Assembly (NCBI GenBank): GCA_977862235.1
Contig: OZ374565.1
Location: 2,108,001-2,172,000 of the forward strand
Reading direction: 5' to 3'
DNA: 64,000 nt
DNA from: Dudresnaya verticillata
Taxonomy: Eukaryota
This document shows positions 12,332 to 51,759 of the stretch, one piece after another. Position 1 is the stretch's first letter. Each line of letters opens with the position of its first letter. The translations under genes were made by a program, and so were the position numbers. Below the pieces are notes generated by a model, which worked only from the letters and a program-made list of their open reading frames with translations, did not search any database and was not told the origin of the DNA.

Positions 12332-14009
12332 AACTCCTGGGTTTCTTCATGAGGTTTGGAACCCTGGTTCGAGAGCGCGGCAGAAAAGTGGTGGGTAAAC
12401 CATTCCTTGTCGACTTCTTCGACTACGGAAGTGCCAACGGGTTGCGCAAAAGTGGAGGTAAGGGTATCAAACTCATCCAGGTCGGTACTAATTGCCTGGT
12501 GGTGAGTCTCCTCAATTCTTTGATTTCCTGCCAAGCCATTACCATCCTCGGTGTCATCCTCAGGGTGCTGGTCGGTCTCTTGCTCGAGGCCGACAACTAG
12601 GTCCGACACAATATGCACGGATGATTCCCCATTCGTGAGCTTTTCTCGAACATAGCTGCGAATGGAACCCGGAGCACACCGATGGCTGGGCTTCCACGGG
12701 GAGAAACCACATTTGTGACACTCATTACGGCGTCTGCTCTCATCAAATGTACGTCCAAACTTGTTCGGGGCCTTGTTGTTCCTCGGGAGATTGTCATCAT
12801 GCTTGCGGACGTACTTCGGGTGACGACCGTACTGCCCGTAGTGAGTTTCTTGCGATGGCGTATAGCGGGTAGAATTCGAACCAGATTGCAGATCCTGGAT
12901 ATCGTCCTCGGGTTCCAGGCTCTCGCGGAGAGCAGTGACGAACTGGTTGAAGCTGTACTTTGCAGTGACCAGATGGCTGATTGGAATTTTTGCCCATGAG
13001 TACTGCAGGATAGCACCACGGAGGTAGCGAATACGGTGCTGCTCCCTACGAAAATCTGTAGCGCACTGTGGGCTCATGACTTCGATGTGGTCGACAATTT
13101 TTGTGAGTCCATCAGATACAGAGGTTATCTCCTTCTCGGACATGAAGCGGTGGAGCTTGAGGTTTTCCAAGGAGGTCTGAACTTGGAGCTGTCGAGCATC
13201 GTTGTAGTACTCGTTCTTCATTAGCCTCGCCATGTCATCAAATGACATATCGTCTCGAGAGTTGTTGAAGAAGAAGTTTCGGGCAGCGCCTTCTAGAACA
13301 TTGATGAAGTAGTCTGCCTTTTGCACCGGGGTAAGACGATGTTGACGAGCGCAGATATTGTAATCACGAAGCAACAAGTCTATGGACTGAGAAAGGTTGC
13401 CAGTGAACTTGCGTGACTTGAAGTACTGATGCACGTAAGCTGCTTTACGAGATTCGTCTCGCACTGGGCGGAAGTTATTTTGACCATGGGTTCAGCAGAA
13501 ACGTTCGAAGCACTATTCGCACGGCGATCCGGCCGGGCAGAAAGTCTCTCAGAGCGCGACGGGTTGATATCACGAGGCGCAGGGGAATCGTGGCGACTGT
13601 TTCGTTCAGCGCTGGCCTCCTTCTCGACGGCGGGTGAAGGTTCAGTTCCCGCACGACCCATTGGAACAGTCACACCGTTTCCATAAGACTGGTTGTTTGC
13701 TCTGTTCATACGAAGGAAGGATAAGTCTCCACGGAAGCGACGATAAGTTTCAAGAACTTGCTTCACTTCACTCGCGTTCAAACCCTGAAGTTTCGCGAAC
13801 CAAACATGCGTGAGCAGGTTGGGACTTTCAGCGTTAAGATCAGAAAGTGCAGTTCCCTCAACGGCACCTTCTGTGTGGTGAAGTGAGCCGTGGCGCGCAT
13901 GCGGCCCACCGACGGCGAGCCAACCGTAACGGGTGATGTGGCAATACGCCACGCTGATGATATCATCAGATATCTGGCAACGTGTAACCGTGTCGGATGT
14001 TGTGCGCAT
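12325..14009 (-). pseudogene. gag: Gag-like protein with zinc knuckle, probably frameshifted near 13450
   Basis: KFTG..LEGAARNFF capsid-like segment; CHKCGFSPWKPSHRC knuckle; overlapping ORFs 13380-14009 and 12325-13464. Confidence 0.7.
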
Positions 14010-14149
14010 TGCTGTACGCCGGTACGCATTGCTGTACAGTAATGAAGCGCACCAACCATACCGGAGTATTTGCAGTGTTTATTCTTTATTTTTAGTGAGT
14101 ATCTGTACAGTATGTAGAGCAGTGCGCCAGCCAATGAGAATGCTGCGCA

Positions 14150-14560
14150 TGTCCGTGTCGGAGATTGGGACCAGCAGGGCCGATTCCACCATGGGTCCAG
14201 ACCACTAGGGTCTGGCCCCCACGGACCGGACCGCTCGGTGCCACCCTGACTTGTATATCAGGGCGGCACCGCAGCGGCTCCTAAGGTAAACGGGTAAGCA
14301 ACCTTAGCCCAATCCTTTACGGTTTTCCCCGCGCCGAGCCCGTTGCGGTCTACCACCACCAACGTTACGGAGTCCGTCCCGGCACTTGTACCACCCCCTT
14401 GTCTGTTGCTTCCCAATATCCGTCTCGGTTAGCCGCTCGCTGTTCTCCCGTTACGGTGCGAACTTCTCTACCACCCCGTGGAGGTAGTGTTGCTCTCGTC
14501 CGTTAAGGAAAGTCAGGCCAGCTGTCCGTCTCGGAGTTCGTGGGTTTTCACTACACCACA
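14150..14560 (+). repeat. Family A 5' LTR (start uncertain)
   Basis: Ends CACCACA just before the PBS; TG at 14150 is only a candidate start; no partner LTR in the window. Confidence 0.55.
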
Positions 14561-14565
14561 TCTTT

Positions 14566-14583
14566 TGGTCTCCCGACCTAGAA
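14566..14583 (+). promoter_or_regulatory. Primer binding site TGGTCTCCCGACCTAGAA
   Basis: TGG-starting 18-mer beside an LTR end; identical at 31602-31619(-), 44810-44827(-) and 54932-54949(+). Confidence 0.9.
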
Positions 14584-14708
14584 CACCGTCACGGTTGGAA
14601 GAAACAGCCGTCGAAATCCGCTACGGTAGGAATTCGGCTGTACCGACAACCCGTTACGGAATATTGGATAGACAAGCAAGAACAACCGTTGTGTTCCGTT
14701 AAGGTATC

Positions 14709-17297
14709 ATGCAGAATGAAGAACACGCAGACCCTCCCGTTACGGAACCTAAAGCGGGTGACACTACCCCCGCTGCGCGCAGTCTGCGCAGTGAAGGAGG
14801 TGAAATCCGTTCCGGAGTGGAGAACCCAGAAGATATCCTTAAGGGTGCTGCTGGTAAAGCTCCCCGTTCCCGTGTCGGATCAGACGCCTCGAAGAAGGCA
14901 GCTCCGCAACCCAAGCCGGAATCCCATCGGGTCCACTGGGTCCTGTCGGAGGTCCTTCCTAGGGTGTTAGAGCATCTCCGATTGGAAGTACAACCTGGAA
15001 TGGTAAAAGAGGTGGAGATATCCCTCTCGGAAACTGTTCCGTCTTTAGTTAATTCCTATCTGGAGCAGCACCTTCCTCGGATAGTACAAGCTTTGATCCT
15101 ACAGGAAAAGGTGGCCACCGAGCTCGAGAGCCAGGTTGCTCCCGGCATGGCAAGGCCTCCCGCTACGGAAGCTTTTACTGAGCAACCACCGTTACGGAAT
15201 GAATTCCCGGTCGAGCGAAGAACGCAGCAGCCGCAACAACCCCCCGTTATGGGATTGCCGCCGGGCACAGTACCCTCTGGGCCACTGCCACCGGCTCCCG
15301 TAACGGATTCTCAACATCAACACGCCCATACGGGACCAACACATACTCAGCCACCGTTACGGTATTCTCCTGGACACGTAGATGTGCCTACGCCAGGGCG
15401 CTATCAGCAAGAGCGCTATACCGTTCCGGTTCGATCAGGTGGAGGCAGCGACCATCTCAGCGATGCGTCCAGCTCACCCCATCCGAGTCGGAGGACCAGT
15501 CGAGGTCGGCATAAACGAGATGCCCGACACTCCCGCTCTGACCCTCCCCGTCGGTCGCACATGGGCGACCACACCCAGCGACGACGCCACCAATCCGGTA
15601 TAGAATCCAATGAGAGCAGCTCGGAGGATAGCCAACACCGCCGCCGCAAGAGGAGAAACAAAAGATCGCGGAAACGCGAAAAAAGGCATGACTCCTCTAC
15701 CTCTACGGATTCAGACTCAGAGAGTTCTTCCGTAACGGATAGAGAGAATAGGCACCGGGCCAGAAAACACGGTGCCAAATCCGGAAAGGTGAAGGTAATC
15801 CGGCCGCTACATGACAAGTTTGTCAAGGCGCTGGACTACCGCACCTACCGATTGGATAAGAGGAGTAAGACATACGGCTCTAAGTTCTCACAGAACATGA
15901 GCCGTATACGGAAGAAACTTGACGTCCAGATGTCGTCCCATACATTCGATGGGACGGACCCCATTACCGTCTTGGGATTTCTCGCTAAGTTCCGTGACGG
16001 TTGTAACATCAACGGCATCGCCGAAGGGGTTGCCGTCTGGTGCTTCCAGTTTTTCCTTAAAGGACAGGCCGAAGCCCTTCTACAGTCTAGGCTTGCTGGA
16101 GGTACCATGGCGGTTGACGAGGAGCAGGCCGAGATGCTCCGCACATATTCCGAGGTGGTGAACTTTTTATTGAGAACCTACGCTACGGATGAAGTGATTG
16201 CTGAAGCCTATACGGATGTCAGCAACTTCAGGCAAACATCCACCATGACGGAAGAGCAGTTCTCGAACCAGCTCTGGGCCAAGGCTCTCCGCTGCGGTAC
16301 AGTATTTTCCGATCGGGCATTGCAGTCACTGTTCGTTGTAGGACTCCTACCGGGCACTCGTCAACAGATGAGAAATTATCTAGCGACGCATTCCCAGTTG
16401 GATTATCAGGCCATCACTCGCTATGCGACTGGCCTGGGTCAGTCCCATCGGGCAGCTCGACGCCAAACCGTTCCGGCTCACGTCTTTGATGGGCGCACAA
16501 AAGCACGCCCGTCTAAGGTGTTATCGCTGGATTCCGTCTCGGAGGTACACTATGATCCGCAAGCAGATCCTTCCGTTACGGATGCTCAAGTCTTCGCTGT
16601 CGAGGGAGGCCACGGTGCCGCTACGGGAACGAGCACGGGGGTTACCTTTTCTACCCCGTACTCCTCGCCCCCGCAAAGCGTCCAACCTACTCCGCCCAGG
16701 ATGCCACGCGCGCAAGGTCCCCCCTATGGTGGTTCTCGCTCGGCTCCTGGCCCCCAACAGCAGCCGAGTCACCGTTACAGAAATAATGCCCACGATGGGC
16801 GAGGACAGCAGCAACCAGCACCTCCGCTACGGGATGAGTCGGATCCTCGGGTCCGACGCCTTTACGGAAGTGGCAACTGTCGCATCTGCCTTTCGCCAGA
16901 GCACGTTGTTTGCCCATGGATACATGACTCCGACCGGGTTAGGCTTATGGAAGAGCGCGAGCGCAACTTCCAGAAGCACTACCCTGTAGGTCGCAGGTTC
17001 GTAGTAGGAACCAGTTCGAATCCGCAAGGGAATCGGGGCAGACCGCAAACGCCCCCTCCGCAACGGAATGCCCCGATACTATCGGTGGAGGACCATGACG
17101 GAGTGGAACTCGCAGAATTGCGCGAGCCCATGGAGGCGGATCCGACTGGTGCAACCTTGAATTCGGAAAACTCAAGGGGGATGCGTAAGGGCACCGCCAT
17201 CCCCGTGTCACGGCGTTCCACCTCTCGCGAGTGTGGACCCGCCAGGGGATCGGCGAGATACCGTTACGGAACTCCCATTGGCTTATCAGACCAATGA
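14709..17297 (+). CDS. gag: Family A Gag (862 aa)
   Basis: DYRTYRL..FDGTDPI..FL capsid motif shared with the B, C and D Gags; CRIC..H..C knuckle. Confidence 0.88.
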   Translation: MQNEEHADPPVTEPKAGDTTPAARSLRSEGGEIRSGVENPEDILKGAAGKAPRSRVGSDASKKAAPQPKPESHRVHWVLSEVLPRVLEHLRLEVQPGMVKEVEISLSETVPSLVNSYLEQHLPRIVQALILQEKVATELESQVAPGMARPPATEAFTEQPPLRNEFPVERRTQQPQQPPVMGLPPGTVPSGPLPPAPVTDSQHQHAHTGPTHTQPPLRYSPGHVDVPTPGRYQQERYTVPVRSGGGSDHLSDASSSPHPSRRTSRGRHKRDARHSRSDPPRRSHMGDHTQRRRHQSGIESNESSSEDSQHRRRKRRNKRSRKREKRHDSSTSTDSDSESSSVTDRENRHRARKHGAKSGKVKVIRPLHDKFVKALDYRTYRLDKRSKTYGSKFSQNMSRIRKKLDVQMSSHTFDGTDPITVLGFLAKFRDGCNINGIAEGVAVWCFQFFLKGQAEALLQSRLAGGTMAVDEEQAEMLRTYSEVVNFLLRTYATDEVIAEAYTDVSNFRQTSTMTEEQFSNQLWAKALRCGTVFSDRALQSLFVVGLLPGTRQQMRNYLATHSQLDYQAITRYATGLGQSHRAARRQTVPAHVFDGRTKARPSKVLSLDSVSEVHYDPQADPSVTDAQVFAVEGGHGAATGTSTGVTFSTPYSSPPQSVQPTPPRMPRAQGPPYGGSRSAPGPQQQPSHRYRNNAHDGRGQQQPAPPLRDESDPRVRRLYGSGNCRICLSPEHVVCPWIHDSDRVRLMEERERNFQKHYPVGRRFVVGTSSNPQGNRGRPQTPPPQRNAPILSVEDHDGVELAELREPMEADPTGATLNSENSRGMRKGTAIPVSRRSTSRECGPARGSARYRYGTPIGLSDQ

Positions 17298-20200
17298 TAC
17301 TATCTTCTTTATGCAACATCAAAATTACAAGATGCAAATTACCGTGGGACGGACAGATAGCGTGATGCTTCCTTTAATCTCCGTCTTGGACTCTGGCGCT
17401 GGGCCCAATCTCATTAGTGCCAGGCGCCTTCCGCGACAATGGCTCCCACTCATACGCCCAGCAGCCAGTCCTCCATTACGGGATGCGTCTAATCGCGCTA
17501 TACGCCCTCTTGGTCAGATCCAACTTTTCGTCCGTATCGGAGAGCTCCGTGCTCGCGTCCATATTTTAGTGGTCGCGAACTTGGCGGCTCCCTGTATTTT
17601 GGGAACTACCTTCATCGACCGCTACGTGAAGGCAATCCTCCCTCCGTTACGGAAAGTTGTTTTTCATCATTACCCACCGGTATCCCTTGTTGGTCAAGCC
17701 AAAATTCCGAAGACGGGAACCACTGCAACCCTACAGCCCTCACCTCTCTCTACCGCTACGGTTTCTCAGAAAATTCGTTTAGCAAAATCTACCCTTATTC
17801 CCCCCATGACTCAAACCACCGTAACGGTTAATACCCCCACGGGTGGGTTATGCTTTCTACAAAATCATCCTAAGCCGGCTTTTAAGCACCTTACGTTAAT
17901 GGCTAATGGTATTATGGATGTTGTACCTAACAAACCGTTTCGGATCTGGGTCTCTAATTTTTCTAACAAGCCGGTACGGTTGCCCAAATCTACTGTCGTG
18001 GGCCTCGCCACTGCTGCCCCCTCTGCTATTTTTACCGTTGACGGTATACCTCCATTTTAAGGAGGGGGGAGGAATTATTCAATCATTTAATTCTAACCTT
18101 ACCTCCGAAAAGGCCAGCACCATCTCCCCTCACGACAAGGAAGTAAGCAAACCCGTAACGGAAAATTCAAATACTACCGACTGGAAGGATCAAGTCCAGA
18201 TCGGCACAGAAGAAGCATCGCTCCGCAAACGGATTTTAACCCTGCTCGAGGAATATAAGTCGATGTGGAGTGGCGATCTTGGCAACATTACAGCTGCCAA
18301 GCACCGCATCGAGTTAACTCCCGGAGCTAAGCCAGTATACCAAGCCCCATACCTTGCCGGACATAAGCAGCGAGATCTCGAAAAGACAGAGATCGATCGC
18401 ATGCTTTCCGCTAAGGTAATTGAACCAGCCTCATCGGAGTGGGCCAGCCCCGTGGTTTTCGTTCCAAAAAAGGACGGCACCATGCGGTTCTGTGTTGACT
18501 ATAGAAGGCTCAATTCCGTAACGGTTAGGGACTCATATCCCTTGCCCAGGATGGATGAGTGCATATATTCCCTTGGGGAAGCTACTGTATTTATCACCCT
18601 GGATTGCAATAGCGGATATTGGCAAGTCGAGATTCCGGAAGAGGAAACGGACAAAACTACCTTCACTAGCCATTTTGGCTTATATCGTTTTCGGAGAATG
18701 CCATTCGGATTGAAAAATGCACCGGCAACCTTCCAACGGGCAGTGGATATAATCCTTTCTACGGTTAAATGTCAATTTGCCCTCGTCTACCTAGACGATG
18801 TAATTGTCTACTCAAAAACCGTTACGGAACATTTCCACCACCTGAAGGAAGTCATTACGCTTTTACAATCCGCTGGGGTAACGTTGAAATTGTCAAAGTG
18901 TGACTTCTTCAACGCGTCTGTACAATACCTGGGGCATGTTATCCGTCCCGGAAAATTAGAAGTGGATAATAGAAATATCCAATCCGTTAAGGTCGCGAAG
19001 CCGCCGACAAACCAAACGGAATTGCGATCCTTCTTGGGAATGTGCAACGTGTATCGTCGCTTTGTACCCAACTTCGCTCGGATTTCAGCACCGCTAAATA
19101 AGAAAACCGGCAAGGGCTCACCCTTTGAGTTTGGAATATTATCCGATACGGAATATGAAGCCTTCGAGGAACTGAAATGACGCCTTATCTCTCCACCTAT
19201 ATTGGCTCTGCCCCGTCACGGATATAAATATACGTTGGACACTGACGCATGTGACCACCAAGTCGGCTGTGTCCTTCTGCAGGAACAACCGAATGGCGAT
19301 CACCTCCCTATTGGATATTGGAGCCGAAGCCTCACCGATGCGGAGAAAAATTATACGACAACCGAAAAGGAATGCTTAGCCGTGGTCTGGAGCATGTTAA
19401 CACTCCGACCCTACCTTTACGGCGACAAGTTTATTCTCCGAACGGATCACGATGCCCTGCAGTGGATCCTGAACCTCGCAGACTCATCTGGCCGCCTAGC
19501 CAGGTGGAGGCTCCGCCTATCGGAATTTGAATTTGAGGTACAATGCCGTCCTGGAATTAAGCATCAACTCGCCGATGGGATGTCGCGACTCCGAACGGAT
19601 GGCGGTGACGATAGACCTTTGGATGAAGAGATACCCTGCTTTGTCGCCGAAAATACCGTCGACGGATTATATGAGCATGGAGTTTATTTAACCGATTGGG
19701 CTACATCACAAGAAACCGCTACGGAAAATAACGTAATATGCGCCGTGAAACCCGCCAGTGGGAGTGCATCCGCCTCCCCTGACAAGCCCGACGCAATACC
19801 GTCACGGTTTACTGTGATCCAAGAATCCGACGTTAAGGATGAGACAATTACCAGGGAGGAGTTCCTCGAAGCGCAAGCCACAGACCCTTTCTGTCGTCTC
19901 AAAGCCGATACAGTAGGCTCCCCTGGATCACAGTTTGACTATGACCGTAACGGATTCTTGGTACGCAAGTCCCAGTTGGATGGTGCTCTGCAGAAGGTAG
20001 TGCCAAGCGAGCTCCGTGGACGGGTATTGTATTTATCCCACTACACCCTGATGTCGGGTCACCCAGGTGGAATTAAGATGTAATATACACTCCGACAGGA
20101 TTATTATTGGCCTCATATGGCCAACGATGTATTTGAATCCGTTCGGAAATGTCGCTCCTGCGTGAAGACAAAGGGAACCCGCTTTCGGAATCAAAGGTTT

Positions 20201-21508
20201 ATGAAACTTTTCCCCGCTAGCGGACCTTTGGAGTTTGTCGCTATCGAAATTCTCGGGCCACTTGCAAAGACAAAACGGGGTTATGTCTACGTCTTGGTAA
20301 TTACCGATCGGTTCTCTAAGCTGACGCGCTGTATCCCGTTACGGACAACAACAGCCGTTGTGGTGGCTAACCCCTTTCTGGACTTTTGGGTGTACGTCTA
20401 CGGCGCACCCCAATTTGACCTAACCGATAACGGACCGCAATTTACTGCTAAGTTCTTCGACGCGGTGTGTTCCTTACTAGGAGTCAGGCACCTGCTAACC
20501 GCTGCCTACCATCCGCAGACAAATGGGCAAGCTGAGCAATTTAATAAGACAATCGCCCAACGTTTGCGCCATTACGTTGAGGATCATCACTCCGATTGGG
20601 ATTTGTACCTGCAACCGTTGACATATGCGTACAACATGCAGGTACACCGTATTACGGAAACAACGCCATTTGATTTGGTGCTGACACGCCACCCATCGGA
20701 CATTGTTGTACGAGGGGCTCCTGTCGAGCATCAAGAAACCGTTACGGAAGGGCGTATGACCCCGGTGCTACAGAAGCGGAGCACCATGCGCCGTTTACGG
20801 TACGCGCTCCAGACAGCGCGCACGAAGCAGACAGTGGCTCAGCAAAAAGCCAAGGCACTGTTTGACCGTAAGGTGCGCTTTAGGCCCATAATCCGAAGCG
20901 GAGATCAAGTCTATGTCGACCGGCCGCCCCATAACTTGCGGCCGGCCGAACGCCGTGAGCGGGACCGATTGGAAGGCAAACCGGACGATGTGGGCGAGGT
21001 GGCTCAGGAAATGAAGAAACTCCTTCCGAGAGTCACGGGGCCTTATGAAGTGGAATCCACAACGGAACATGTCGTTACAATCCGCAAGGAAGGGGTATTG
21101 ATCCCCGTAAGTATCGATCGCATGACGAAGGTTCCGATCGGAGTTGCGGTTCAGCCGGTACCCTTAACAGTGCCGTCTGTCACGCCATCAACCGTCTACA
21201 GAGAAGTAGTGCCACATCCAGAAGGTACTACAGTAGTACCTCCTTCTGAAGGTACTACTCCCTCCGCGACGGAGCCACTGCAAGCCGATACGGAATATGT
21301 GATCGACAAGATTGTTGGTCACCGCGACGAACCTACTGGGATGACATACAAAGTCCGCTGGTATGGTTACCCTCCGGATCAGGACACTTTTGAGCCCGCG
21401 GAGGAGTTACCGCAGAATTTGATCTACCGATATTGGAAGCAAAGGAAAAAGACATCCGCTAAGGGTAAGCCACGGCGACGTGCTAATCCAACACGTCACT
21501 CACCGTAA
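17233..21508 (+). pseudogene. pol: Family A Pol (protease, RT, RNase H, integrase, chromodomain), disrupted
   Basis: LDSGA; RFCVDYRRLN, YLDD; TDAC, EKECLA; AYHPQTNG; EYVIDKIVGHR..YKVRWYGY..DTFEP. Frameshift ~18058; stops at 19178 and 20081. Confidence 0.95.
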
Positions 21509-21608
21509 CGGACAGTTGGAGTGCTGGGGTGTGAGAACACACAATGTTTATCGCAAGCTAAGATCGAGGCATAATGGAAACCGTTAAGGAGATCGTCGAA
21601 CTGTAACT

Positions 21609-23608
21609 CTAAAAGTTACGTCGACACCGCTTCGGAGCAGGGGCAACTGTATCTTCCTCGTTGCTCCCCTGACCCGTTCGTAAGCCGGGTTCCCCACTCG
21701 GATCCGATTGGAATACGCGCTGCGTAGCGTCTCCCAAGACGCGAACCGCACTATCCATGCGCCGACGCTGACGACGGACCACTGCGCGCAGATGAATCAA
21801 CTTCTCCATCAGTCCCTCCGCTAAGGTTAGCACTTCCTGAACGGATCCTGGCAATGGGAAGCGCTGCGGACGGCAAATGCCCCGTAGCACCTGTAACCCA
21901 CTTTCCGTAGCGGCTAAGTGAGCCGGAACCTTAACGGGGGGATCCTCATCTTCTTGAAATTCTACCTTAGGGGAGATCGACGGCTTATCCCTAACCCCGG
22001 CTTCGAGTGAATGTTCCGTTGAGGAGACCACCAATACGGATGGTCCCGAGTCGGGTGAAGGTACGTCCTTCCGCAGCGGTGGACCCGTGTCCTTCTCTGG
22101 CGAGGCGATATCGCTTTTCCGTAACGGTTCAGGACTTGACGCGAGAACCGAGGGCTTGTCTCCAGTTGCCCCAACACTTGGGCGCGTTGCAGCCACTTCC
22201 GATACGGTGATCGACGCCGCATCCCCCGCTGGTGTGGGAGTGGGCGCCAACAGTGGAGCACTTGGCGGGAGCGGTTCAACGGCAGCAGGCACTTGCGTCG
22301 CAGGAGACAGAGCCGCCGGCACAGTATCCGGCGCCACTTCCGTAACGGTCTGCTGCTTTGAGGTCCCCTTCTCGGATGGTGCCGCGGGCTTGGTCACCGC
22401 CATAATCGGCGCAACCACGCCTATGGGCGTTGGAGCCTTATCCGATACGGGAGTAGTGGTCTCACGATCCACATCGCGCAGCGTGGGTGTCGCGACCACC
22501 GGAAGGATTGGAGCGGGTGTCTTCTCGCTACCCGCTGCCATTGAGGCGACGGGCGTTACCTCCTCCTGTTCTTCCAAGAAGGGGTCAGCTTCTTGCTGCC
22601 TCACCGTAACGGAATCGCGTGGGTCGATTGTACGCGAACGCCCCGCTGCCTCCTGACAGATCCCCCAATCTTCAGCTTCGTCCAAACCGTCACAGTACGC
22701 ACCCCTTGGTGCTTGGCGAGGGGCATAGCCCCGATGGGCCTGCACCTCTAAGGCCAACTATTCCGGACGCGGATCTTCTCGATGAAGGAAATATGGCTCA
22801 CCCACTCCGGGCCTAAGCGGGGGCACCGATAGGACACGGTTCTCGTCCAAACTATACGCCAAGAAGCCCGGAGTGCGTTGCCAATCCTGCTCGCCGTGTA
22901 CGGATAAAAGACGCTCAACCCGATGGAGAGGGTACGCCGACCCCGTCACCAAATCGGCTACGCCGACTTGGCGAATTAGGGCGATCACCGTTACGGGAAG
23001 TTGAAAGATACGGCCACAGTCTCCCCCGGGCAGGTCATCCTCATCCCGTGGGAAGCATCGCCAGTCAGCTAACTTGGTGTTATACCGTACTCCGTAATAG
23101 GCCACCTGGAGCGACGAGAAGAGCACCAGCATTACCCATTCCGATCGGAAGATGCGCCACAGTACATCGAGCTGATCTTGATTTGGGGGACGCTCTCCGT
23201 TCGGATGCTTGTGATTCCACTCCCGTTCGGTGAGTAAGTCCGCCGAGAAGTATGCTAAAACGGAAGGCGTGGGGACAGACAACCAACGGGTCACCTCATA
23301 ACGCTCCCACCATGACGGAGCTGTAAGGTACAATTCACGACGCACCCGATACGGAAGATGGAAGAACTCCTTAGTGTTCCACGTATGCAGGATTGGCGAG
23401 CCAACTTGTATTCCGTCACGGGAACGAGTTCGCAAACGGTGTTCCGTCGCGGCATCGTCCTTCCACCCATCGGCATAGCGGAACCAATATATCGATTGGT
23501 CATAGGGGCGGTCGAAGCAAATGAATTGCACTCCGACCGGCGCACCCCGGAGACGTAAACCTTTGGCCAACAGGTGACTCACCTTTGCGGTATATCCTAC
23601 CTCCCCAT
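21609..23608 (-). pseudogene. Family A antisense accessory ORF (unknown Trp/Tyr-rich domain + P/A/T/S-rich linker + basic helical tail), copy 1
   Basis: ORFs 22758-23699 and 21609-22757 are in one frame, split by a TAG that is TGG in copy 2; homologous to the family B antisense ORF. Confidence 0.8.
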
Positions 23609-27253: not shown

Positions 27254-27326
27254 GTCTCTTTATGAAGTCATGAATACATCGACTGCATCTCTACTTTACC
27301 GCGTGCGGCATCGATGCCAGCGATAT

Positions 27327-28066: not shown

Positions 28067-28067
<1 letters not shown>

Positions 28068-28267: not shown

Positions 28268-29351
28268 CCCTACAAATTCTTACTATAAGGTAAACATTAA
28301 AATTTTTAATGTTAATAGTAAAAACTTTAATGTTAATAGTATTAAAATATTAAGTAAAACGGGTAAAATCTAGGTTTAATTAAAATTAAAATATTAATTA
28401 TTATTATTAAAATTATTTGGGTGATTTTGCGTTTTAGGGGGTGACAGGGTCCGGCGTTGCGGCAAATGGGGGGTGAAAGTGGATTTATTGCGGGAGATGG
28501 GGTCCGAATGGTAACAGGTTGTTGAAAATGGGGGCGACCTGTGCGAAAGTTTGAGTTATGGCGGGGCGAAACTTGAAGTGTCACCCTGCATCTGGTTGAG
28601 AAAAACCAAATGTCGAATAAACAGAGGCATTTTCACCTATGTAAAACAGCAATTCCGGGAATGTGTCGCCCCTTGAAAAGTGCAAGACGCCAAGTACCCT
28701 CTGATTCGAAGGCTACTCTGGTCTGTTTTGAGGATAAGCGTGTGCATCTGGCGAAGAAAGAGAATCTGCAAATTCCAAAGGCTTTGCCGCCACGGCGTGG
28801 ACGTCCGGTGAGAAATGCCGGAAAGCGCAAGAAGAATTGGTACAAGAGAGGTCCCGCAACCAAGAAGAAGGGCGTGTACTCTTGCTCAATATGCCGTCTG
28901 AAGGATCACACTGTGAAGGACTGTCCTCTCAAGCAGCTGTATGGGGATACCGCGGAGTAGTGACCGTAAAGTAACCTAATTCACCCCCCATTCAGTACAA
29001 AAAGTTGCCTTGTCGCCCCGCGCCTAGTTCAATATTGAGAAATGTCGCCTTTTGTCATCCCTCGATTACTTCAAGTTTTGTCTTTTTCGGGTCAGGGTTC
29101 TCGACGCCACCGTGCGGGTGCTCGTAAAACGAGCTATGTCAGACCTGTTCTTGTTGTAAATTGACGGTTGTCACCCGCCATTTCCAGCAACATATCGTTT
29201 TTCACCCCTCATTTGCCACAAAAGGGGACCCTGTCGCCCCCCTAAATGCAACATTATCTCATTTTAGTATTCAAAATTTGAATTAGTTATATTTCATAAT
29301 TTAATTATGAAAATTTCATTTAATGTAATTAGTAGTAGTGTCAATGTAGTG
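28268..29351 (+). mobile_element. Non-autonomous DNA transposon with long imperfect TIRs and a zinc-knuckle transposase tail (Mutator-like); ends approximate
   Basis: 28425-28480 is inverted relative to 29199-29255 (TTTAGGGGGTGACAGGGTCC / GGACCCTGTCGCCCCCCTAAA); the internal ORF 28610-28960 has PPRRGRP..RKK..CSICRLKDHTVKDC. Confidence 0.65.
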
Positions 29352-32300
29352 TGCTCCTGCACGGTCATCACTGCCCGAAGCAGTTCGCGCTGCGGGTCGG
29401 GCCTCGAGGGCGTCGACGCCCGAGGTTGGCGACCGGCTTGGTCGTCAAACCCGACCCGCTTGTCGCGAGTGAGGAACCGCGGGACGTCTGCCCTTCGGTA
29501 TTCGCCGCGCGGATCTCGACGATCCCCGCGATACTGTCGCGGCTACCCCGCGATACCTTTGCGCGTCGAAGCGCTGCGGGGGACCTCTCGCGTCGAAGCG
29601 TCGGGCCCCACCCCGCTGCGCGTCGAAGCGTCTTGCGGGGTAACCTTGCCTTGGCGCCTGCCGGCATGCGCTCGTCGATGAGCTGCTGCAAGTTGTTGCG
29701 CGCGTGCGGCTGCGTTTCCAGTCTATGGTTGCAGTTCGCATACGCGCAGTACAACTGCTGTTCCTTAGTCAGGAATGGGCACGAGTACATGATGTGTCCA
29801 AGTTCTCGGCAGAACCAGCAGATGTACCACCCCTGTCGATCAGGGGTGACAGCGCGGGCCATTGCCTCTTGCGCCGGTGTGAGCGGAGGGATCCTCCTCG
29901 GCAGGACGGCGTCGATGCGTCCTGATATGTCCAGGGTCTCCTCGGCTTGCGCCGCCCCGGCTTTCGACAGCGCGGGCATGACCATGACGGGTTCGAAACC
30001 ATCGTCATCGGGCGCCACCAACATCGTGCCGTCGAAGGCCGCTTCCCTATCGGGGGTGTGTGGCGCCTCGATAAGCAGTGTGCGGCCGCTTGGCGAACTG
30101 CTTCCCCTACCGCGCCCCGAAACGATGGCCGGCGTCGACGCCTTGGCCATGCGGGCGCGGTAGGTTGTGCCCTCACTGTGGGCGATCCGACGAACGGTAC
30201 TGAAGTTGGTCTGCTCGACCATCGGCATCTGCCTTTCCTTCTCCGCTACTGCGGGTCGGGTGGTCGGAAGCAGACCACGCAGGAACTGGTGCGTCAGGTT
30301 CTCGTCGGATAAACGCCGGCACAGTCATCTGCGTAGCCCTCTAGACGAGAGGCGAACTCGAGTTCTGACTCGGCGTCCCGCTGCCGGGCGGTGGTCAGTC
30401 GGTCGTGCGCGTCGGCGATCACGTCGTCGGTGACGAACCTCTCGACGAGGGTGTTGACCACCGAGGCCCAGCACGGGGGGGTGCCGCGACTAGTCGTCCG
30501 GACCCCCGAGAAAAGGTGACTCGAATACACCTGGGAGGCCGTTCCGTCTAGGAACCAGGACACCACTCGCGCTGCTGCGCCTTCCGACAGGCCGATGCCG
30601 TTGAAGGCTTGGCGTAGCTGTCTAAGCACGCCAAGCAAGCGGATGGGCTCCTTGCCGTCGTAGCGATCTAGCCGCGGCATGAGAGCCTTCATCCTGCTGA
30701 CAATCTTGGCCGCGTTGCCATCGCAGACTTGCTGCTGATTGTCCCGCTGTCCTATGTCATCTAGACGATAGGAGCGGTAATCGATCGCCTTTGCGAATTC
30801 GGGGACCAAGGTGCTCAGCGGCTCGACGCCCGGCACTAATGGCCCCCAGTGCCAGTAGGCCGACACGGGACCTTTGTGTGGTGGGGGCTAGACGCCCCTC
30901 CAACTCCGCGCCCGTCGAGGGCGCGTTCCAGTAGCTTGGGGTCGACCCCGTAGAAGGGGTCGTCATCTCTTGTAGGGCGAGGGGACCCTTGCCCACTCCT
31001 AGGCGGAGAGGCCGGTGGAGAAAAGGGGTTTCGCTGAGCACGACGCTCAGCGAGGAGGGCTTTGGCCAGTTCGCGAACCGGATCCGCTTGAGACGGCGAT
31101 CGCAGAGGACGGCTCCGCACCGGCGACGGGCTAGGCGCCCGTCGGTCATACCGCGCCGGTGCGTGCTCAATCAACTCAACGCGTTGGCGTAGCTCGTCGA
31201 GGAGCGCTTGAGTTCGGGTTAATCCTTCCTCGACGGAGGCGAGAGTTCCGCGTCAAAGCGACTCCAGGTCACGTTGACCTTGTGCCCGCGCGTCTGCGAC
31301 TGAGGCCATGAAGGTGTCGTACACTTCCGAAAGTGAGTCCATCGTCTCCTCGTAGAGTAGCTGGAGGTCGGTCGCAGAGACCGTTGTCCCTCCTAGGGCC
31401 TTGGCTATAGCCGCCCTGCGCTCGATGCGCGGTTCATCTAGGGGAGCTCCTGAGACGCCGACGTTACTCAGCAAGGAAGTGCGTCGACCGCCAACTTCAC
31501 CTGCCGCGGCGTCTGCCGAACCGGCAGCGGCCGAAGTAGGTAGCGGCGGCATTCTTGGCCTCGATCGCGTCGACGCGAGAGGTGATAGGGTCTTCTGCTA
31601 CTTCTAGGTCGGGAGACCAGTGTGGCATAGACGTCAGGTCGAACTGACGTCTAGCTGCGCTGGCCGATCAGTCGCACCCAGACCCGTCGAAGGGTGGTAG
31701 CTGTGGTGGTAGAGCGGTGGTGGCGGCCGCGCGCCGTCGACGGTCGCGGATCAACGGCGTCGAAGCCTGAGAGCGCACGGGGCGTACCGTACGCGGGCGG
31801 CAGCGGCCGGATCCCCGCGTCCCCGTCGTGGGGCGGCACGAAGCCGACGGTAGGGAAAGAAAAAGGAAACCCTAGGCGGCTAGGGAAAGAGGGAAGCCGT
31901 AGGGCGAAGGACTGGGAAAGAAGCCCAAAGCAGAAAGGGCAAGCCTGGCGTAGGCTGGCTTGCCTGGTTTACTGAAGCCCAGAGGGGCGACTACTAGATA
32001 TACTACAGGGCCTGCGGCGGCACCAACCCGGGAGGTGCGCCGGCGCGCCCCAACACGCGTCGACGCGTACGGGTAACGGTAACCCGGGGGCGCGCGTAGG
32101 CGAAACGGTCCACACGTACTCAACGGCTCGACGCCGGAGTGCGCGCGCGCGTGTCACGCACTCAACGGCTCTGCGCCGGAGTGCGTGCGCACAGCGCGCA
32201 GGACAGCAGGGCGTTCCACCGCCGCTTACACTAGACGGTGCTGTACACTACAAAACAATAAACGTAGAAATTACATGGGAGTTTCAGTGTCACACGCGTA

Positions 32301-32424
32301 CGCGTGCACACGCGGGCGCCACTGCGCACTTCCTTACAGTTCAGCGGGGCTTCGGCGCCACCGGCTGACAGCGTGCGCACAGCAGTGCACATGTGGCGCA
32401 GCTGGTCTTACAGCTGCGCGTGCG
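29352..32424 (-). mobile_element. Ty3/gypsy family C: partial 5' LTR (31621-32424), PBS and fragmented gag; truncated
   Basis: PBS 31602-31619 next to TGTGG; gag pieces with IDYRSYRL, YDGKEPI and CWFCRELGHIMYSC. Confidence 0.85.
29368..31552 (-). pseudogene. gag: Family C Gag, fragmented
   Basis: ORFs 31253-31552, 30836-31174, 30294-30866 and 29368-30228 are successive pieces. Confidence 0.8.
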
Positions 32425-33330
32425 TGTGGTGCAAACGTCTGAGACGATAGACCGCCGAGCAGTTCGGGGCTCGGTGGGTAGCTGCGCCCTTGGCGGTGAG
32501 TAGCCTCGCCTTGGGCGACTTGTTGGTAGAGCAAAGGACACGCCTTGGGAGGACTGCAGACGCCCGAGGCAGAAAGGAAGGGAAAAGGAAACAGAAAGGG
32601 AACACGTCAAGGACGATGGTAACGTCAAGGACGATGGTAGACGTGGAAGCACGGGAGGTAGACGCTTGAGCCGTAGGCAGCGGTAGGATACGCGCGTGCG
32701 GAACGGGGAAGTCTGGACCAAGGCCGGCTTGCCCGGGTGTTTACAGTTACGTCTGGGACGGCTTACCTAAGAATAGTACGGCGATGCGGCGGCGGCGGTG
32801 CGTGTGCGTAGCGCGGGATATCGGGACATGTGTCGTCCCGAGGCGCGTCTGACAGATCACCCATCGCATGCAGCCGCGCGCCTGCCAAGTTGCCGTACAA
32901 TCCCCTGTTTGGGTGCTTACACGCACACGTGGACGCGTGTGCCTTACAGCCGTGCGCGCGCGCGTACCGTAGAGCATGCGCCTTGGATCTAATCCGATAC
33001 TTGTCCGATCCCGATCCCATCCGGATCGGGACCCGCAGCCTTACAGGCGCGTATCTTACAGCTCAGGCGATCCAGATAGCCAATCTGGATACCGGATCCG
33101 GATCCCATCTGTATCCGTATCACAGTGCCCCGGGGCGCCACGTCGGCCCATCACCGTACAGTGCCCGCGTGGCGCGCGGCGCGCAGTGTGCGCGCGCGCC
33201 CCAGTGAGCCGTCGATGACGTGTTCGCGCGCCAACGGCGGTGGTGAGCGCCGGTGGCGGTTTCTCCGTCGGTCGACGTATTTGGTCTGCCCGCTTTCAGC
33301 GAAAAGGGGCTCACCTCCCCTTGCACCACA
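32425..33330 (-). repeat. Family B 3' LTR (906 bp)
   Basis: 10-bp terminal IR; carries an 18-bp duplication and a 14-bp deletion relative to the 5' LTR; adjacent polypurine tract GGAGGGGG. Confidence 0.95.
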
Positions 33331-33838
33331 CGACCCCCCTCCAAAACGCGAACACTCCCGACCCTCAACCTGCTGCCGTGCGCCCTCCCGTTGCGGTCCT
33401 GCCAACTTCCGCGCCTTGCGAACGAGTCCCCGCGCCTTCGCGTATTGTGTTGGTGCGCCCGCGTGCGCGTTGCGACCTCGGCTGTGCCGTAAGAACTTCG
33501 CTCTTGTTGCGTGGTTGTGTCCGTGCGACTGCGTTGACGCTGCCCCGACATCACCGCCTGTGGCGCATAACGATCTCCGTCGTTGACGTCTATCGTATAT
33601 CCCTCACCGGGGGCGTCGCAACTTAATCGTCATCGACGTTGTTTGCCTTTGGCATCGCCAGTGGCGCAGCAGCTGAACGTCGTTGACGTGGGTTTCTTTT
33701 CCTCGCCTGAGGCGTTACACAGTAATCGTCTTCGACGCACGCTTCTCGAAGCTTTCGCCAGTGGCGCAGAACACGAGTCGTCTTTGACTTTTGTACAGGC
33801 ATCGCCGTTGGCGCTACCATATTCTCATCGTTGACGTC

Positions 33839-36142
33839 ATGCAGATGTTCAATGGCATGCAGGTGGCGGCGCCCTCGGCCGCGCCTGTGTACGCTTCGCC
33901 GGTCGACTTCGTCGGAAAGAACCCTCGCGACCGCGCGCATTTCTTCACGCGGGCCCCCTGGTTTGACCAGGAGGCTTTGCGCGAGGAAGAATTGGTCGCC
34001 CATTACGCTACTAGCGGTTTCTTGCCGGGAGCCTGCCCCTCGGCGTCGTCTGGACGTTGGAATGGAAGTTGCGTTGTGCCGTCCCTGCGGAATGGCTTTG
34101 GGTGCGAGCGGGGCAGTCGCGTGCGGACGTCCACGCGCAGTTCGTCTCAGACGTGTATCGTCGCTTCACGCGTTATCCGGGGTCGACGTTAACGCCGCCC
34201 CTGTTCAATTATGATGCGGGACAATACCGCACAGCCGGCGAAGCCGAGTATGGTGCTCGTCTCGGGACTCTATCGCTCAAACATGTGAGCGTGTCGATTG
34301 AGCCCCGTGTGTTGGGAGAGGCTTACCTATTAGGCGTGCGCTTGAAAGCGGATTTTCGTTACTTGCATCGTACGGGTATGTTCTTTTGGGAGCGTTGTAT
34401 CCGGTGGGAGTGCGAGACGCGTCGCCGAAAGGGCGTATTCGTGCCTTACCAGGACATGCAGGTCGATCGCATTGAGCGTAGTAAGTTACCCTTCTGTTTC
34501 TTGAAGGTGCCGCCTGTAGGGCGCGAGTTTGAGATATGCGAAGGTTTCTCCGTAGAGCTTCCTCCATGTGTCACGTATCTTGGTTCCAAGCTGATGACCG
34601 ACCCGTATTCCAGGTATTGGATCGTGTTTTACACGGAGTGGGTCGCCAATGTGGCGTATGCGTGGTTATGGGAGGTGTATGACACCTTCCGTATGTACCA
34701 CTTACCCCCGCGTGTGGTGGCTCAGCTTGGCGGCCTCGACTTGGTCGAAATATTTGGCGGGTCCCGGAACGCCGAGGAGTTCTGGAACCTGCGCGCGGTG
34801 GCGGATGAGATCGATTGGAACGACCCGGCAATGGTGCCGTATGCGAACAACCGCCGTAAGGCGAACCGTCCGCGATTCGCGATGAGTCGGACTCACTCCG
34901 CCTGTGGCGATTGGATCCATTATAATCCGTGGACTAAGCGTCGTACGAAGAAGAACGTTGCGGAGCGCCATCGCAAAACGGACCGCTTCACCCCGGGTAA
35001 TCACCCGCGTGGTTTGCGTAAGAGCTGCGACTTTGTCGGTGATTTTCCTCCGCATTTGAGTGCCTTAATGGCCGAGAAGGATGCGTTTAACGCCGATGGC
35101 GGACCGGAGAACCCGTCTGGGACGGATATCGCTACGCCTATGGCGGTTGAGTCGACTGCCGAGCCTGCGCCCACATCTTCGTCTTTGCCCGGAGGTGCTG
35201 TCGATGGCGGTGGAGTGCCAGCTGGCCTGCTAGCTGTTGTGCCTCTGGACCTTGCAGCCCCCGTCGCTGACGATGATGGCGATGCCGTTATGGCGACGCC
35301 AATATTGGAGTCGGCTCCGCCGACCGTGACGCCTCAAGGCGAAGTATCAAACGTCGCAGACGGTTCTGGGAGTCCAGCTTCGGTGCCGGTTTGGACCGAA
35401 GAGCAGCACCGCACCGTGCTTGCATTATTGCAGGCGGTAGGCGTCGCTACTAGCGGTCTGAGCGGCTCACCCACTGAGTAGATGAGCCAATCTTTGTCAG
35501 CTACGATCCCACCTCAGGGTGGGCCCGCGCCGAAGTCGACTAGTGTCGTAGGTTCTGCGAAGAAGGACGGTGTGGCGGAGAAGCCTTCGTCGCCTATGGC
35601 GAATGGTCCGGCGTCTAAAGACGTGCGTATGACTGTACCGCCTGCGGCGAGCGAAGCGAATGCCGCTATAGCGTCGTTGACGGCTCCGAAGGGGCTAGGT
35701 GCTCCTGCGTCATTGACGGGTGTCGGATTAACAGCGCCGAAGGCGAGTGAAGAGGCGACGCCAATGAAGGCGGTTTCTGAACTGACGCCAAAGGCGGTCG
35801 AAGAGTCTTTGATTACGCTTAAAGCGGATGGGGCTGTGCCCGCGCCTAAGGCGAACGATAGCTTGAGCTCTGCGCCTGTGGCGGGTGTTATTGCTTCATT
35901 GCCTTTGGCGGATATCGTCGCGACGACGCCAAAGGCGATTGATAAAGTCGCCCCTTTTGCCTGCGGCGCCTGTTGCGACTACTCCGGCAGTTGCGGTGAC
36001 GAGGCCTTTGCGGTCCGACCCGGCTCCTGCCGTGAGTGTACCGCCGACGACGGAGGACGACCTCTACGAAGAGGCGTTACGTGAGTCCGCCGAAGGCGCT
36101 GAGGATGTGCCACCCGATTCGTCTGCGACGAAAGAGTCTTGA
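33839..36142 (+). pseudogene. Family B antisense accessory ORF (unknown domain + A/P/S/T-rich tail), disrupted
   Basis: ORFs 33791-34192, 34057-35481, 35482-36084 and 35885-36142 join through two frameshifts and one TAG; opposite strand to pol. Confidence 0.8.
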
Positions 36143-37418
36143 TGTCGTTTCAGGAACGGATAGCGGACGCGAGGGGCGTATTGTGTTGCCCTTCGGCTCC
36201 CTTTCGGGACCGATGAGCGGGGTATTCCCCTTCGTCTTTGACGATTAATGTAGCTGTAGTGGTCGATCGCTGGGGCGAGGGGTTGTCCCCATTTGTTTTT
36301 AGCCCAGTAAACTTCGGCCATTGTCAGCGTCTTTTCGTGTCGCGTTTCGCGTTGGCCTTAGGGTGTAACCTTTGCTCCTCTTTCGACTTTGCGTCGTGTT
36401 CTTGATTGCCCGCTACCGTAGCGTTGGCGTTTGATGCCTTTAGCCTTGGCCGTGCGTTGCGCTTCGGCTGTGTTTGGCTGGTAGTGTCCACTGTAGTAGC
36501 GTTTTTCTTCGTGTTTCACGTGCGGCGTTGGTGTATTTCCGCTTACTTAGCGTTTTTGTAATGAATGTGTCGCACTGCGCCTTAGGCGTGGTTTATCGGC
36601 GTCCTCAACGAGGGTCGCGAAGGCGGTGAGGTAGGTGTTGACGCCTTAGCGTTGCCGCCCCTTTCGTCTTCGACGTTCCTCCCTGGGGGTAGGGTAGAGT
36701 TGTCGGTCGTGCTCGCGCGACTGCGACCGCGGCGGCCACGGGCAGCGGCGGAGTCGCTGGCGATTTGTTGGCGTGTCGTGCACGGAACCCACAGCAAATG
36801 CGTCTTCAAAAACCTTCCCCCCCTTCGGGGGTGGGTTTGTCGGTGCGCCCCTTCTCCGGCAAGATACGTCGGAGACGTTCGACGGGTGCTTGCGCGCGAG
36901 ACCGTGGCCGGCAGGGTGGCGGTCCCAGGGACTTGGCCGTGGGGCGAGTGCACGTCTCGACGTCGGAGACGGTTGTTGTGCGCTGCCACTTGAGCCTGTC
37001 GTCGCTGGGGCTCGTAGCACCTGATCAGCCACTTGGCATGATTGCGTTCGTCGTGCGTTGACGGCGGGGTGGTGCGCGCTGCCGTGTTTGGAAATTAAAA
37101 TTTGACCAACTACTGCCTCCTATTACCTGAGGGGCGCCGGTGGCGGATCTCGATTTGCGATCTGGATCCACTGTCAACAGCGCACCCATCCAGAGGTTCC
37201 GTATTGGGGCTGCTGCGAGGTGGCGTGCGCGAGGCTGTCTATGACGCAACGACTTGCGTCCGCGTTCGTCCATGGTGTGCACACGTGTTTGGCGCTGTCG
37301 CTCTGGCGACCGCGTCCACAGGCTATGGGTTGCGCTTCCGCGCCTTTGGCGATCGTAGGTCGAACAATCGGTCTCGATCGTCCGTCCATTCGCTTCCAGC
37401 GGTATTTCAAGATTAGGG

Positions 37419-40400: not shown

Positions 40401-42140
40401 CATGACGGAAGTGACTGTCGATGTCGCTGGAGAAGATTATTACGTCATCGAGGTAGACGAGGCACGAACGCCACTTGTAACCAGCGAGCAGTATGTCCAA
40501 CGTTCTTTGAAACGTAGCGGGTGCGTTCGTGAGACCGAATTTCATACGCTTATAGCGGAACAGTCCGGCGTGGCACGTGAACGCAGTCTTTTCGCGGTCT
40601 CGCGGATTGATCGGCACTTGCCAGTACCCACTGTTACAGTCTAGGGTGGTGAAGACGTTTGCTTCCCCTAGACTGTCGATGCATTCGTCGATACGCGGCA
40701 GCGGGTACGTGTCCCGTACGGTTACTGCGTTTAAACGACGGTAGTCTACGCAAAAGCGGAGGGTCCCGTCCTTCTTGAGGGCGAAGACCACTGGTGACGC
40801 CCACGGCGATTGTGCGGGTTCGATAACCCCTTGACGCAGCATACGGTCCACTTCCGCTTGAGTGAGTTGTCTATGCTTCGGCCCCGCTAGGTAGGGCGGG
40901 GACGATATCGGTCTAGAGCCGGGAAGCAAGTCGATGTAGTGCTCCGTGGTTGAGATTTCTCCCAACGACCTGTCCCACATAGACGAAAACTTGCGCAACA
41001 TCTCCTTAAGCCGGCCTTGATGCTCGGCGGGGAGATTTCCCAGGTCTAAATCGTCTACTGACGGAGGTTTGGCAGTGGTTGCCTCGATAGACTTCGTGAA
41101 AGTATCCGGCTGTGCCGCAGTGTTATCGTTCGTTTGAAAACGGAAATCTTGGTTTACCTTCTCTTCCTCGGCCTGTTCCTCTGTGAGGCCCAAAACATCG
41201 GCTAGACTTACGTGACTGGGGAACACTGCTGTCGGATGTGGTAGCGCCGTCGCGACGACTTGGCCCTTGGTCAGCGCCTGCGGGCGGGGAGAGAAGTTGG
41301 CAACCAGAATGCGAAACGCTTTTAGCGGCTCCACTTGAGCAATCCCGTTCGTAACGGCCAGACCTTGTTTGTCGTATAGCGTTCCGAACGGTTGAATTGT
41401 GATGATGCCGGCGCGCTCGGTGGTCACCGATACCCATTGCTGCGCCTTAGGCGGGATGACCGCGCGCTCGGCGACTCGGGTCTTGGGTGACGTCCTCCCT
41501 TCGGCCTTGCCATATTCCTGTTCCGTTGGTAACGGAGGATACGACGGTGGTCGGCGCAGCGGGCGGCGCGTTATAGGGACACGAGTCCCGTCATCCAATT
41601 CAACCTCGCGACTTCGCGGATATATTACTTCGACGAAGCGGTCGCAAAAGTCGCAGCCGAGTATAACCGGCGCAGCGAGTCGTTCACAAACGATCAGTTC
41701 CAACTTGACGACTCTCCGTCCTAGACGAACTACCAGGTCGATGGTGCCTCTTGTCTGGATCGCCTTATTGTTGGCGTCGGCTATGACGGGGAGGCTCTTT
41801 ACCACGATGCGCGATCGCGCTTCCAGCGGAATGTCGTCAATGCGAATGAAATTCGGACCAGCCCCCGTGTCGAGGACAGTGAGTTTACGTGCCAAGGTAC
41901 TAACGGTTGCGCCCAAATCGGCGTACACCTTATAGTTCCTCTTGGCCATTACGAACAACTGCCCTCGCGCCCGGGGGGGCTGGTACCTTCGCCATGGGCG
42001 TTTTAATGACGTCTGCGACGACTCTATCCGCCCGTTGGCGTCATCGGAAACTAACGTCGGGCCCTCCTTCCGTGTCAGCACCCGAGGCCTAGGCCTCTCG
42101 TCGTGGTGCGACACCCCAGTGTCAGGAGTTGGTGCCCGAG
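37419..42140 (-). pseudogene. pol: Family B Pol (protease, RT, RNase H, integrase, chromodomain), disrupted
   Basis: LDTGA; YLDD; DCDAS, EKECLA; GHPG..C..C; TYHPQ; GPY; VIERIESH..YRVKWFGY..TLEP chromodomain (37419-37613); several stops and frameshifts. Confidence 0.93.
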
Positions 42141-44702: not shown

Positions 44703-44829
44703 GATATAATCGTAGAGTTGCTTGAACGTCGTGGACGATTAGCGACAAACGTCAGAAGACGGAGAGTCGGACGTCGCACGACGGAGTAACTCGTTGAAAC
44801 GTAGCACAATTCTAGGTCGGGAGACCAGA

Positions 44830-51659: not shown

Positions 51660-51759
51660 CGGACAGTTGGAGTGCTGGGGTGTGAGAACACACAATGTTT
51701 ATCGCAAGCTAAGATCGAGGCATAATGGAAACCGTTAAGGAGATCGTCGAACTGTAACT

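Follow-up and report, generated by a model that had tools for sequence, protein, structure and literature searches.

A palindromic word dispersed through a red-algal Ty3/gypsy retrotransposon, the stamps of related families and a candidate antisense-encoded reader

The window analyzed here is a stretch of 64,000 nucleotides of Dudresnaya verticillata DNA (GenBank assembly GCA_977862235.1, contig OZ374565.1, positions 2,108,001 to 2,172,000 of the forward strand), and coordinates refer to this window unless a locus is named. It contains two copies of a long terminal repeat (LTR) retrotransposon, family A, in which the palindromic word CCGTNACGG is dispersed from end to end as a stamp. As judged by its sequence, family A is a red-algal Ty3/gypsy chromodomain LTR retrotransposon: The Pfam order is RVT_1, RT_RNaseH, rve, and a C-terminal Chromo. 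Copy 1 (13874-23608, plus strand) is, like copy 2, decayed and cut by nested insertions. Its 5' LTR (13874..14560, plus) features the inverted termini TGTGGTG...CACCACA with an adjacent primer-binding site (PBS) and carries two exact words and nine sites of the wider form CCG-N3-CGG. The boundary of this LTR had to be deduced, since nested insertions truncate both copies and no second LTR of family A is left in the window. The PBS (14566..14581, plus) is identical in families A, B, C, and E (four exact matches versus 0.03 expected). The gag gene (14709..17294, plus) contains seven exact words and 18 CCG-N3-CGG sites, both counted in 14709-17160. Gag has 24 homologues, one of which carries a name, from Agarophyton chilense. 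The pol gene (17161..21508, plus) comprises a protease region, reverse transcriptase (RT), RNase H, integrase, and chromodomain and contains 12 exact words; its reading frame is disrupted by a frameshift and stops, as judged by the list of open reading frames (ORFs). An antisense ORF (21609..23608, minus) with five exact words follows and is cut off by a family B LTR. Copy 2 (45732..54144, plus) is 93-99% identical to copy 1, and a solo LTR of family C splits it at 46223-46998. Neither Rfam nor tRNA scans yielded a hit in the window, and viral and metagenome contigs scanned for Gag or pol gave no match.

The word CCGTNACGG occurs 47 times in the window versus 1.55 expected—a count reached in 0 of 100 shuffles. 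Copy 1 holds 28 and copy 2 holds 19 of these, the latter in 46999-54144, where 43 CCG-N3-CGG sites were counted; the 45,854 window bases outside the family A copies hold none. The first-pass annotation had described about 27 exact copies in 14300-23608, spread over LTR, untranslated region (UTR), gag, pol, and antisense ORF and falling in different frames. Exactly 27 were counted there, every one of the 24 coordinates it gave is an exact match, and the placement was confirmed, with all three frames in use. However, the element starts at the LTR start 13874 rather than 14300, which adds a 28th word at 13924, and copy 1 contains 46 one-mismatch variants instead of about 15. The fuller site reads W-CCG-(T)N(A)-CGG-W. 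In copy 1, CCG-N3-CGG occurs 66 times between 13924 and 23452 versus 6.5 expected, 28 of these being the exact word. Any other spacer between CCG and CGG yields at most 13 sites, with spacers 2 and 4 mildly enriched (11 versus 5.4, 5 of 300 shuffles, and 13 versus 7.4, 8 of 300, respectively). The site density per kb is 13.1 in the LTR, 20.3 in the UTR, 7.3 in gag, 5.3 in pol, and 6.5 in the antisense ORF; 23 of the 28 exact words (24 by other region bins) lie in gag, pol, or the antisense ORF. Spacing of the exact words is more regular than random (coefficient of variation 0.54, P 0.0004). Neighbouring sites among the 66 are at least 21 bases apart (P about 5e-5), which matches the expectation from a protein footprint. 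In addition, the half-sites vary independently of each other—inner bases are complementary in 33 sites versus 31.0 expected and flanks in 21 versus 23.3—as would be the case for a symmetric dimer bound to duplex DNA.

Host transcription factors would offer another origin of the word if the elements had collected their sites, which in family A would be MYB sites. TAACGG, a MYB-type core, is part of the word; 24 of the 28 exact words have an A/T centre and hence contain TAACGG or CCGTTA, and the core outside full dyads still occurs at 0.82 per kb versus 0.24. However, 37 of the 66 CCG-N3-CGG sites lack the core and still reach 3.8 per kb versus 0.46, and lone half-sites are hardly enriched (11.3 versus 9.1 per kb). 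Moreover, four families in one host carry four stamps, and the stamps follow element lineages. Host factors as the source of the stamps are, hence, highly improbable.

The family A stamp is not a by-product of protein coding. Synonymous codons were permuted with or without the next base or the next residue fixed, 1000 times each, and the observed count was never reached (0 of 1000 in 9 of 9 tests): gag contains 7 words versus 0.46-2.28 in the shuffles, pol 11 versus 0.63-1.72, and the antisense ORF 5 versus 0.39-1.05. All three kinds of shuffle support the earlier proposal that the constraint is on the nucleic acid. The word is used at 23 of the 28 positions where the family A proteins permit it. 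Amino acids are also bent toward the word, since places able to encode it are denser in A (28 in 2930 amino acids) than in family B (8 in 2433) and in the related locus L001 (1 in 988)—about threefold and tenfold, respectively.

That the word is missing from other families, as annotated at first, holds outside family A throughout the window, but each other gypsy family has a stamp of its own. The stamps of A, B, C, and E are mutually exclusive in the window. The family B element (32423..45731, minus, both LTRs) carries 123 inverted repeats of the form CG-xy-NNN-y'x'-CG in 33331-45731, and these are the self-complementary ones among 252 CG-N7-CG sites. The arms CGCC/GGCG occur 37 times and CGTC/GACG 32 times, mixed arms once. 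The stem ends at four pairs, loops of three, four, and five bases occur 123, 43, and 25 times (controls 9-13), and codon shuffles did not reach the observed count (0 of 1000). These covarying 4-bp mini inverted repeats may be considered an even greater surprise than the word of family A. The family C fragment (LTR, PBS, and gag; 54145..58290, right end approximate, plus) contains 41 YGGCCR, with 25 versus 9.8 in the codon shuffle (0 of 300). The family E fragment (part of an LTR, PBS, and gag pieces; 29300..32422, left end approximate, minus) contains 26 CGTCGA/TCGACG, with 13 versus 5.1 in the codon shuffle (0 of 300). The C and E words were chosen after the fact in short fragments and are weaker than those of A and B. 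Element D, a DUF7869 ORF, and a peptidase ORF show no stamp excess, and the result for the ORF of a long interspersed nuclear element (LINE) is borderline (6 of 300 shuffles). Families A, B, C, and E (13874-58290) have the PBS and TGTGG... LTR starts in common and are nested in one another, which suggests targeted insertion into element clusters.

Stamping extends to a clade of related loci. These comprise 80 metagenome loci from RT scans and seven loci in eukaryotic contigs of a bacterial assembly, G001; four distant loci serve as outgroup, and five further G001 contigs, counted without a null, are not used. G001 (L085-L104) is a metagenome assembly with at least 10 red-algal-type retrotransposon contigs, which are most likely host contamination. 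In the pol region, short inverted repeats exceed expectation at z≥4 in 73 of the 87 related loci, every such peak falling at spans 11-14, and the peak of the four outgroup loci stays at z≤2.7. A GC-rich clade of 59 loci features five pairs around a 3-base centre and L003 four pairs around three bases. L085 and L087 have four pairs with TTCA/TGAA-type centres, and L086 and L088 have GC-centred loops. The stamp of L001 is a plain CG-N3-CG (74 versus 32-47 in codon shuffles, 0 of 1000). In this pol fragment (L001:1-2968), the CpG pairs spaced by exactly three bases (74 versus about 27) amount to a 5-bp CpG periodicity within coding sequence. Fixed words thus occur in A, C, E, and L001, and B and most relatives have sequence-variable inverted repeats of 4-5 bp around centres of 3-5 bases; the form of the stamp follows the element lineage. 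Word scans of the 80 loci had suggested that only L001 is stamped and that other signals are tandem arrays. This was overturned by the span-based scan, since stems of variable sequence escape a search for words. Palindrome-rich tandem arrays do lie 3' of pol in L009, L022, L029, L037, L042, L047, L056, L067, and L072. In the GC-rich relatives, the array units measure 50, 57, 96, or 101 bp, and several arrays are located between pol and the antisense ORF.

Stems in one clade are under purifying selection. In the span-13 clade, four-fold sites change less in stems than elsewhere in seven of seven comparisons, four of them significant, of which two are one pair read both ways. In an example pair, 7 of 63 four-fold sites in stems changed versus 111 of 291 elsewhere (P 1.5e-5), and chance stems gave 24 of 68. 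A mutational process free of benefit, namely template switching or hairpin-templated repair in reverse transcription, would likewise make covarying arms, and fully compensated homologous stems exist. It could also lower stem divergence, so that conservation of stems does not fully exclude it. Such a process cannot, however, yield the fixed word with independent half-sites of A, the loop-less words of C and E, or the CG-N3-CG of L001; stems stop at a fixed length, spacing is over-dispersed, and amino acids are bent toward the word. Overall, a mutational by-product is improbable.

Whether the stamps are read as DNA or as RNA can be judged from B and the relatives, which are covered by the following strand and G-U counts; the arms of A are invariant and, hence, do not lend themselves to a G-U analysis. 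Within gag-pol, both orientations of the loop words are in excess: L085 has 9 and 7 per orientation versus 1.6 and 0.9 expected, and L088 has 13 and 7 versus 0.8 and 0.7. Over 515 span-13 sites, loops are balanced as well (GCC 34/GGC 31 and GAC 32/GTC 33). Perfect stems in gag-pol number 825 versus 329 expected from codon shuffles, an excess of 496. Stems with one G-U pair number 513 versus 467, an excess of 46 or about 9% of that of perfect stems, and the excess of one-A-C stems is 7. In the antisense ORFs, the respective excesses are 178, 26, and 24. Both loop orientations together with the poor tolerance of G-U favor a reading on DNA, with some room left for a role of RNA. Of the dimeric DNA-binding or RNA-packaging factor proposed in the first-pass annotation, the first option agrees with the half-sites of A, which vary as in a dimeric DNA site, and the second is weakened in the relatives.

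Packaging signals dispersed over the genomes of single-stranded RNA viruses are many short one-stranded RNA stem-loops in coding sequence. The stamps resemble them in number, size, and coding location but differ in the use of both orientations and in the scarcity of G-U. Stem-loops of this kind, bound by Gag or by a Rev-like antisense protein, would serve packaging or export of the element's own RNA. The covariation of the family B arms (CC-CC 37, TC-TC 32, mixed 1) at varying loop length fits such signals, as do the avoidance of flank pairing (15 versus 31.6, P 0.0008), the A-rich loops of B on the sense strand, the sense-strand G-U excess (z 2.6), and the fast divergence of Gag. However, gag-pol loop words point both ways, one-G-U stems are hardly in excess next to perfect ones, and predicted pairing is near equal on both strands (0.40 versus 0.32 in B and 0.33 versus 0.29 in A). 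In addition, A, C, E, and L001 carry fixed words whose arms have 0-2 bp or do not covary. RNA signals therefore appear unlikely as the main role of the stamps.

Single-stranded or freshly made DNA could also be the substrate, with the dyads acting at the complementary DNA (cDNA) stage. Integrase, RT, or the antisense protein would then read them for protection, compaction, or nuclear entry and would have no role in silencing. Strict Watson-Crick stems lacking wobble and GNA-type loops fit DNA hairpins, and the integrase has a chromodomain and binds DNA. Against this, a single-stranded intermediate would not need both orientations, and RT and integrase are 65-85% identical across stamp changes, where the antisense domain is 31-43% identical. 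We consider a cDNA-stage role unlikely as well.

The antisense ORF of family A consists of a globular N-terminal domain (22761-23606, an open frame), a low-complexity linker, and a basic C-terminal tail, and has one internal stop. Its homologue in family B (34015..36081, plus), whose domain is likewise an open frame, matches it by BLASTP at E 8e-05 with 22% identity over 169 amino acids. A joint profile of both (HMMER) collects 153 clusters at 50% identity, and one of 10 clusters looked up has a named member, from Gracilariopsis chorda, a species with an intact homologue (PXF39757.1); word-indexed protein searches with the low-complexity tail or the domain gave no match. Among 25 loci that have at least 5 kb downstream of RT, 21 carry the homologue behind pol in antisense orientation. 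L012 (13909-15153) and L035 (11499-13532) carry extra plus-strand ORFs of the family further downstream, probably in nested elements of opposite orientation. The antisense protein brought up by the first-pass annotation thus proved to be a real, conserved, and fast-evolving family. The predicted fold of the domain reaches a pLDDT (predicted local distance difference test) of 89 and a predicted template-modelling score (pTM) of 0.89. Fold searches gave no clear match in Foldseek against PDB (best E 1.4) or viral structures (best E 0.72); the VIA search reached a best Z of 5.7 over a helical part, and the ESM Atlas returned only hits under 0.8 for the domain of family A. A PDB sequence hit to the ORF was disregarded, as it sits in the low-complexity tail. 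The lack of a match is no proof of a new fold. No informative Pfam hit was obtained on 30 antisense homologues (E≤0.01), and the conserved residues include an E-x-R-x-R segment. Zn2Cys6-type proteins bind CCG/CGG and carry a six-cysteine cluster. A reader of this type was rejected, as the domain alignment has no conserved cysteines and no Pfam hit. The family A protein ends in a basic motif resembling a nuclear localization signal, as do 14 of 68 long homologues; internal windows contain such a motif in 1% of cases, and none of 13 Gag proteins ends in one.

In both contrasts across which the stamp changes, no other gene product compared has diverged as far as the antisense domain. In the first, it is 43% identical versus 60% for Gag and 81-85% for RT, and in the second 31% versus 61% and 71%; within one stamp, it keeps about 70-86% identity versus 76-89% for Gag. 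The antisense protein is the likeliest candidate for a reader of the stamps.

We propose that a two-fold symmetric protein encoded by the element binds the stamps on DNA along the whole element; this stands at about an even chance of being right. The family A word would mark the element as self for the protein encoded on its antisense strand; this protein would coat copies of its own family and probably keep the coated copies active against host silencing. A purpose in anti-silencing rather than in protection or handling of cDNA is probable by analogy with VANC and is the least certain part of the proposal. In this lineage, silencing of elements by PRC2 is reported for Cyanidioschyzon (bioRxiv 2022.10.24.513474). 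The dyad would be read as a plain duplex site in A and as an extruded hairpin or cruciform in the B type, and a change in specificity of the antisense protein would found a new family. A wider version is tentative and, on balance, rather doubtful: The clade would carry a red-algal barcode whose reader, an accessory protein with a fold not yet described, recognizes DNA symmetry itself, with mini-cruciforms of family-specific stem length and loop every 60-150 bases and with families founded by reader switches. The mini-cruciforms would be written in by synonymous and amino-acid changes, and family A would be the lineage whose structural code hardened into a fixed word.

Several observations weigh against binding of the stamps by an element-encoded protein on DNA. 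Nothing in the antisense fold predicts DNA binding, because no known DNA-binding protein matches it, and the terminal basic motif is limited to the 14 of 68 homologues. Four of the 25 long loci are stamped yet have no antisense ORF downstream. The link of stamp and protein rests on two contrasts, Gag diverges fast too, and a weak span-13 peak persists in a sister clade of 18 loci despite only about 30% antisense identity to the 59-locus clade. Between the family A copies, 0 of 252 core positions differ when sites are taken from copy 1 and 3 of 270 when taken from copy 2, which is not significant; the copies are nearly identical to each other and, hence, unsuited to a conservation comparison. 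Stem conservation attains P<0.05 in no more than 5 of 20 comparisons and weakens between distant pairs. The 87 loci represent few independent lineages, 59 of them falling in one clade of about 88% DNA identity. Compensatory change is rare in that clade, with more than one stem at 3 of 25 shared sites and 456 observed versus 443 with shuffled arms. The small sense-strand G-U excess and the A-rich loops of family B count here as well. A 4-bp cruciform is unstable by itself, so that the protein would need to extrude a B-type cruciform. The RT tree is a quick tree with A, B, and L001 unresolved at its base, and for this reason no order of events is claimed.

The surroundings of the stamped elements contain further features. 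Element D (10925-13491, minus) comprises ORFs that resemble gag and protease/integrase but lack Pfam hits, and the family A LTR interrupts it. The LINE-like RT region lies between the arms of a 286-bp inverted repeat (95% identity; 4913-5197 and 10450-10735). The peptidase ORF (25469-27253, plus) encodes an M12 reprolysin-like metallopeptidase and lies in an AT-richer host stretch between elements; around it, 24954-29300 shows a mild excess of inverted repeats at several spacings (z about 4). The DUF7869 ORF (59011-62088, minus; E 1e-44), with an acidic ORF upstream and short repeats at 58292-58778, possibly belongs to a mobile element.

The stamping is real, clade-wide, and unexplained in the open-access literature searched, in which no description of such stamps was found. 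It forms a second code over the RT and integrase genes that biases their amino acids. The extra antisense ORFs of LTR retrotransposons, described as of unknown function in the accessible part of PMC7264820, here gain a family-specific candidate target. A matrix of proteins and probes (CCGTNACGG, CG-xy-NNN-y'x'-CG, YGGCCR, and CGTCGACG) would test the self-marking of DNA by retrotransposons and would show whether a protein reads short DNA symmetry independent of sequence. If the wider version of the proposal is true, no self-recognition (anti-silencing) system would precede this one among retrotransposons, and its more than 150 programmable dyad readers would form a natural library.

Centromeres offer a first comparison. 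The accessible text of PMC5889037 distinguishes sequence-variable dyads of <10 bp from sequence-specific benders such as CENP-B, and the same split of variable dyads and fixed protein-binding words is seen here, although in coding sequence of mobile elements rather than in satellite DNA. Among plant gypsy elements, the accessible part of PMC7264820 describes antisense ORFs between pol and the 3' LTR in Grande (gene23), RIRE2, and Retand, which are conserved within families with function unknown, GENE23 of Grande being reported as nuclear. The red-algal antisense ORFs share their position and orientation. In contrast to the plant ORFs, Transposase_28 gave no hit on the 30 red-algal antisense homologues. 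The named members of the family among those looked up are red-algal only, and that part of PMC7264820 reports no DNA motif associated with the plant ORFs. The closest parallel is the VANC/VANDAL system of Arabidopsis, for which motif binding and anti-silencing are demonstrated in the accessible part of PMC5735166; the accessible part of PMC13547354 mentions anti-silencing solely for VANC. As far as these sources go, both systems have an accessory, fast-evolving element gene and a motif that is enriched in one family, rare in others, and different between related families, and in both density matters. The tandem arrays of the GC-rich relatives recall those of VANDAL and Retand elements. However, VANDALs are Mutator-like DNA transposons, and the element here is an LTR retrotransposon. 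DUF1985 and DUF287 gave no Pfam hit on the window ORFs or the 30 antisense homologues (E≤0.01). VANC motifs, according to the same part of PMC5735166, are mainly non-coding, have one orientation, and accumulate by tandem repeats, whereas the stamp is a palindrome scattered over gag, pol, and the antisense ORF and takes the form of a variable inverted repeat in most relatives. The VANDAL analogy drawn in the first-pass annotation hence holds for a dense, family-specific motif and breaks down for its placement, orientation, and form. Membership in VANC/VANDAL fails because element class, domains, and motif placement differ, and the system works like VANC/VANDAL without being a member of it.

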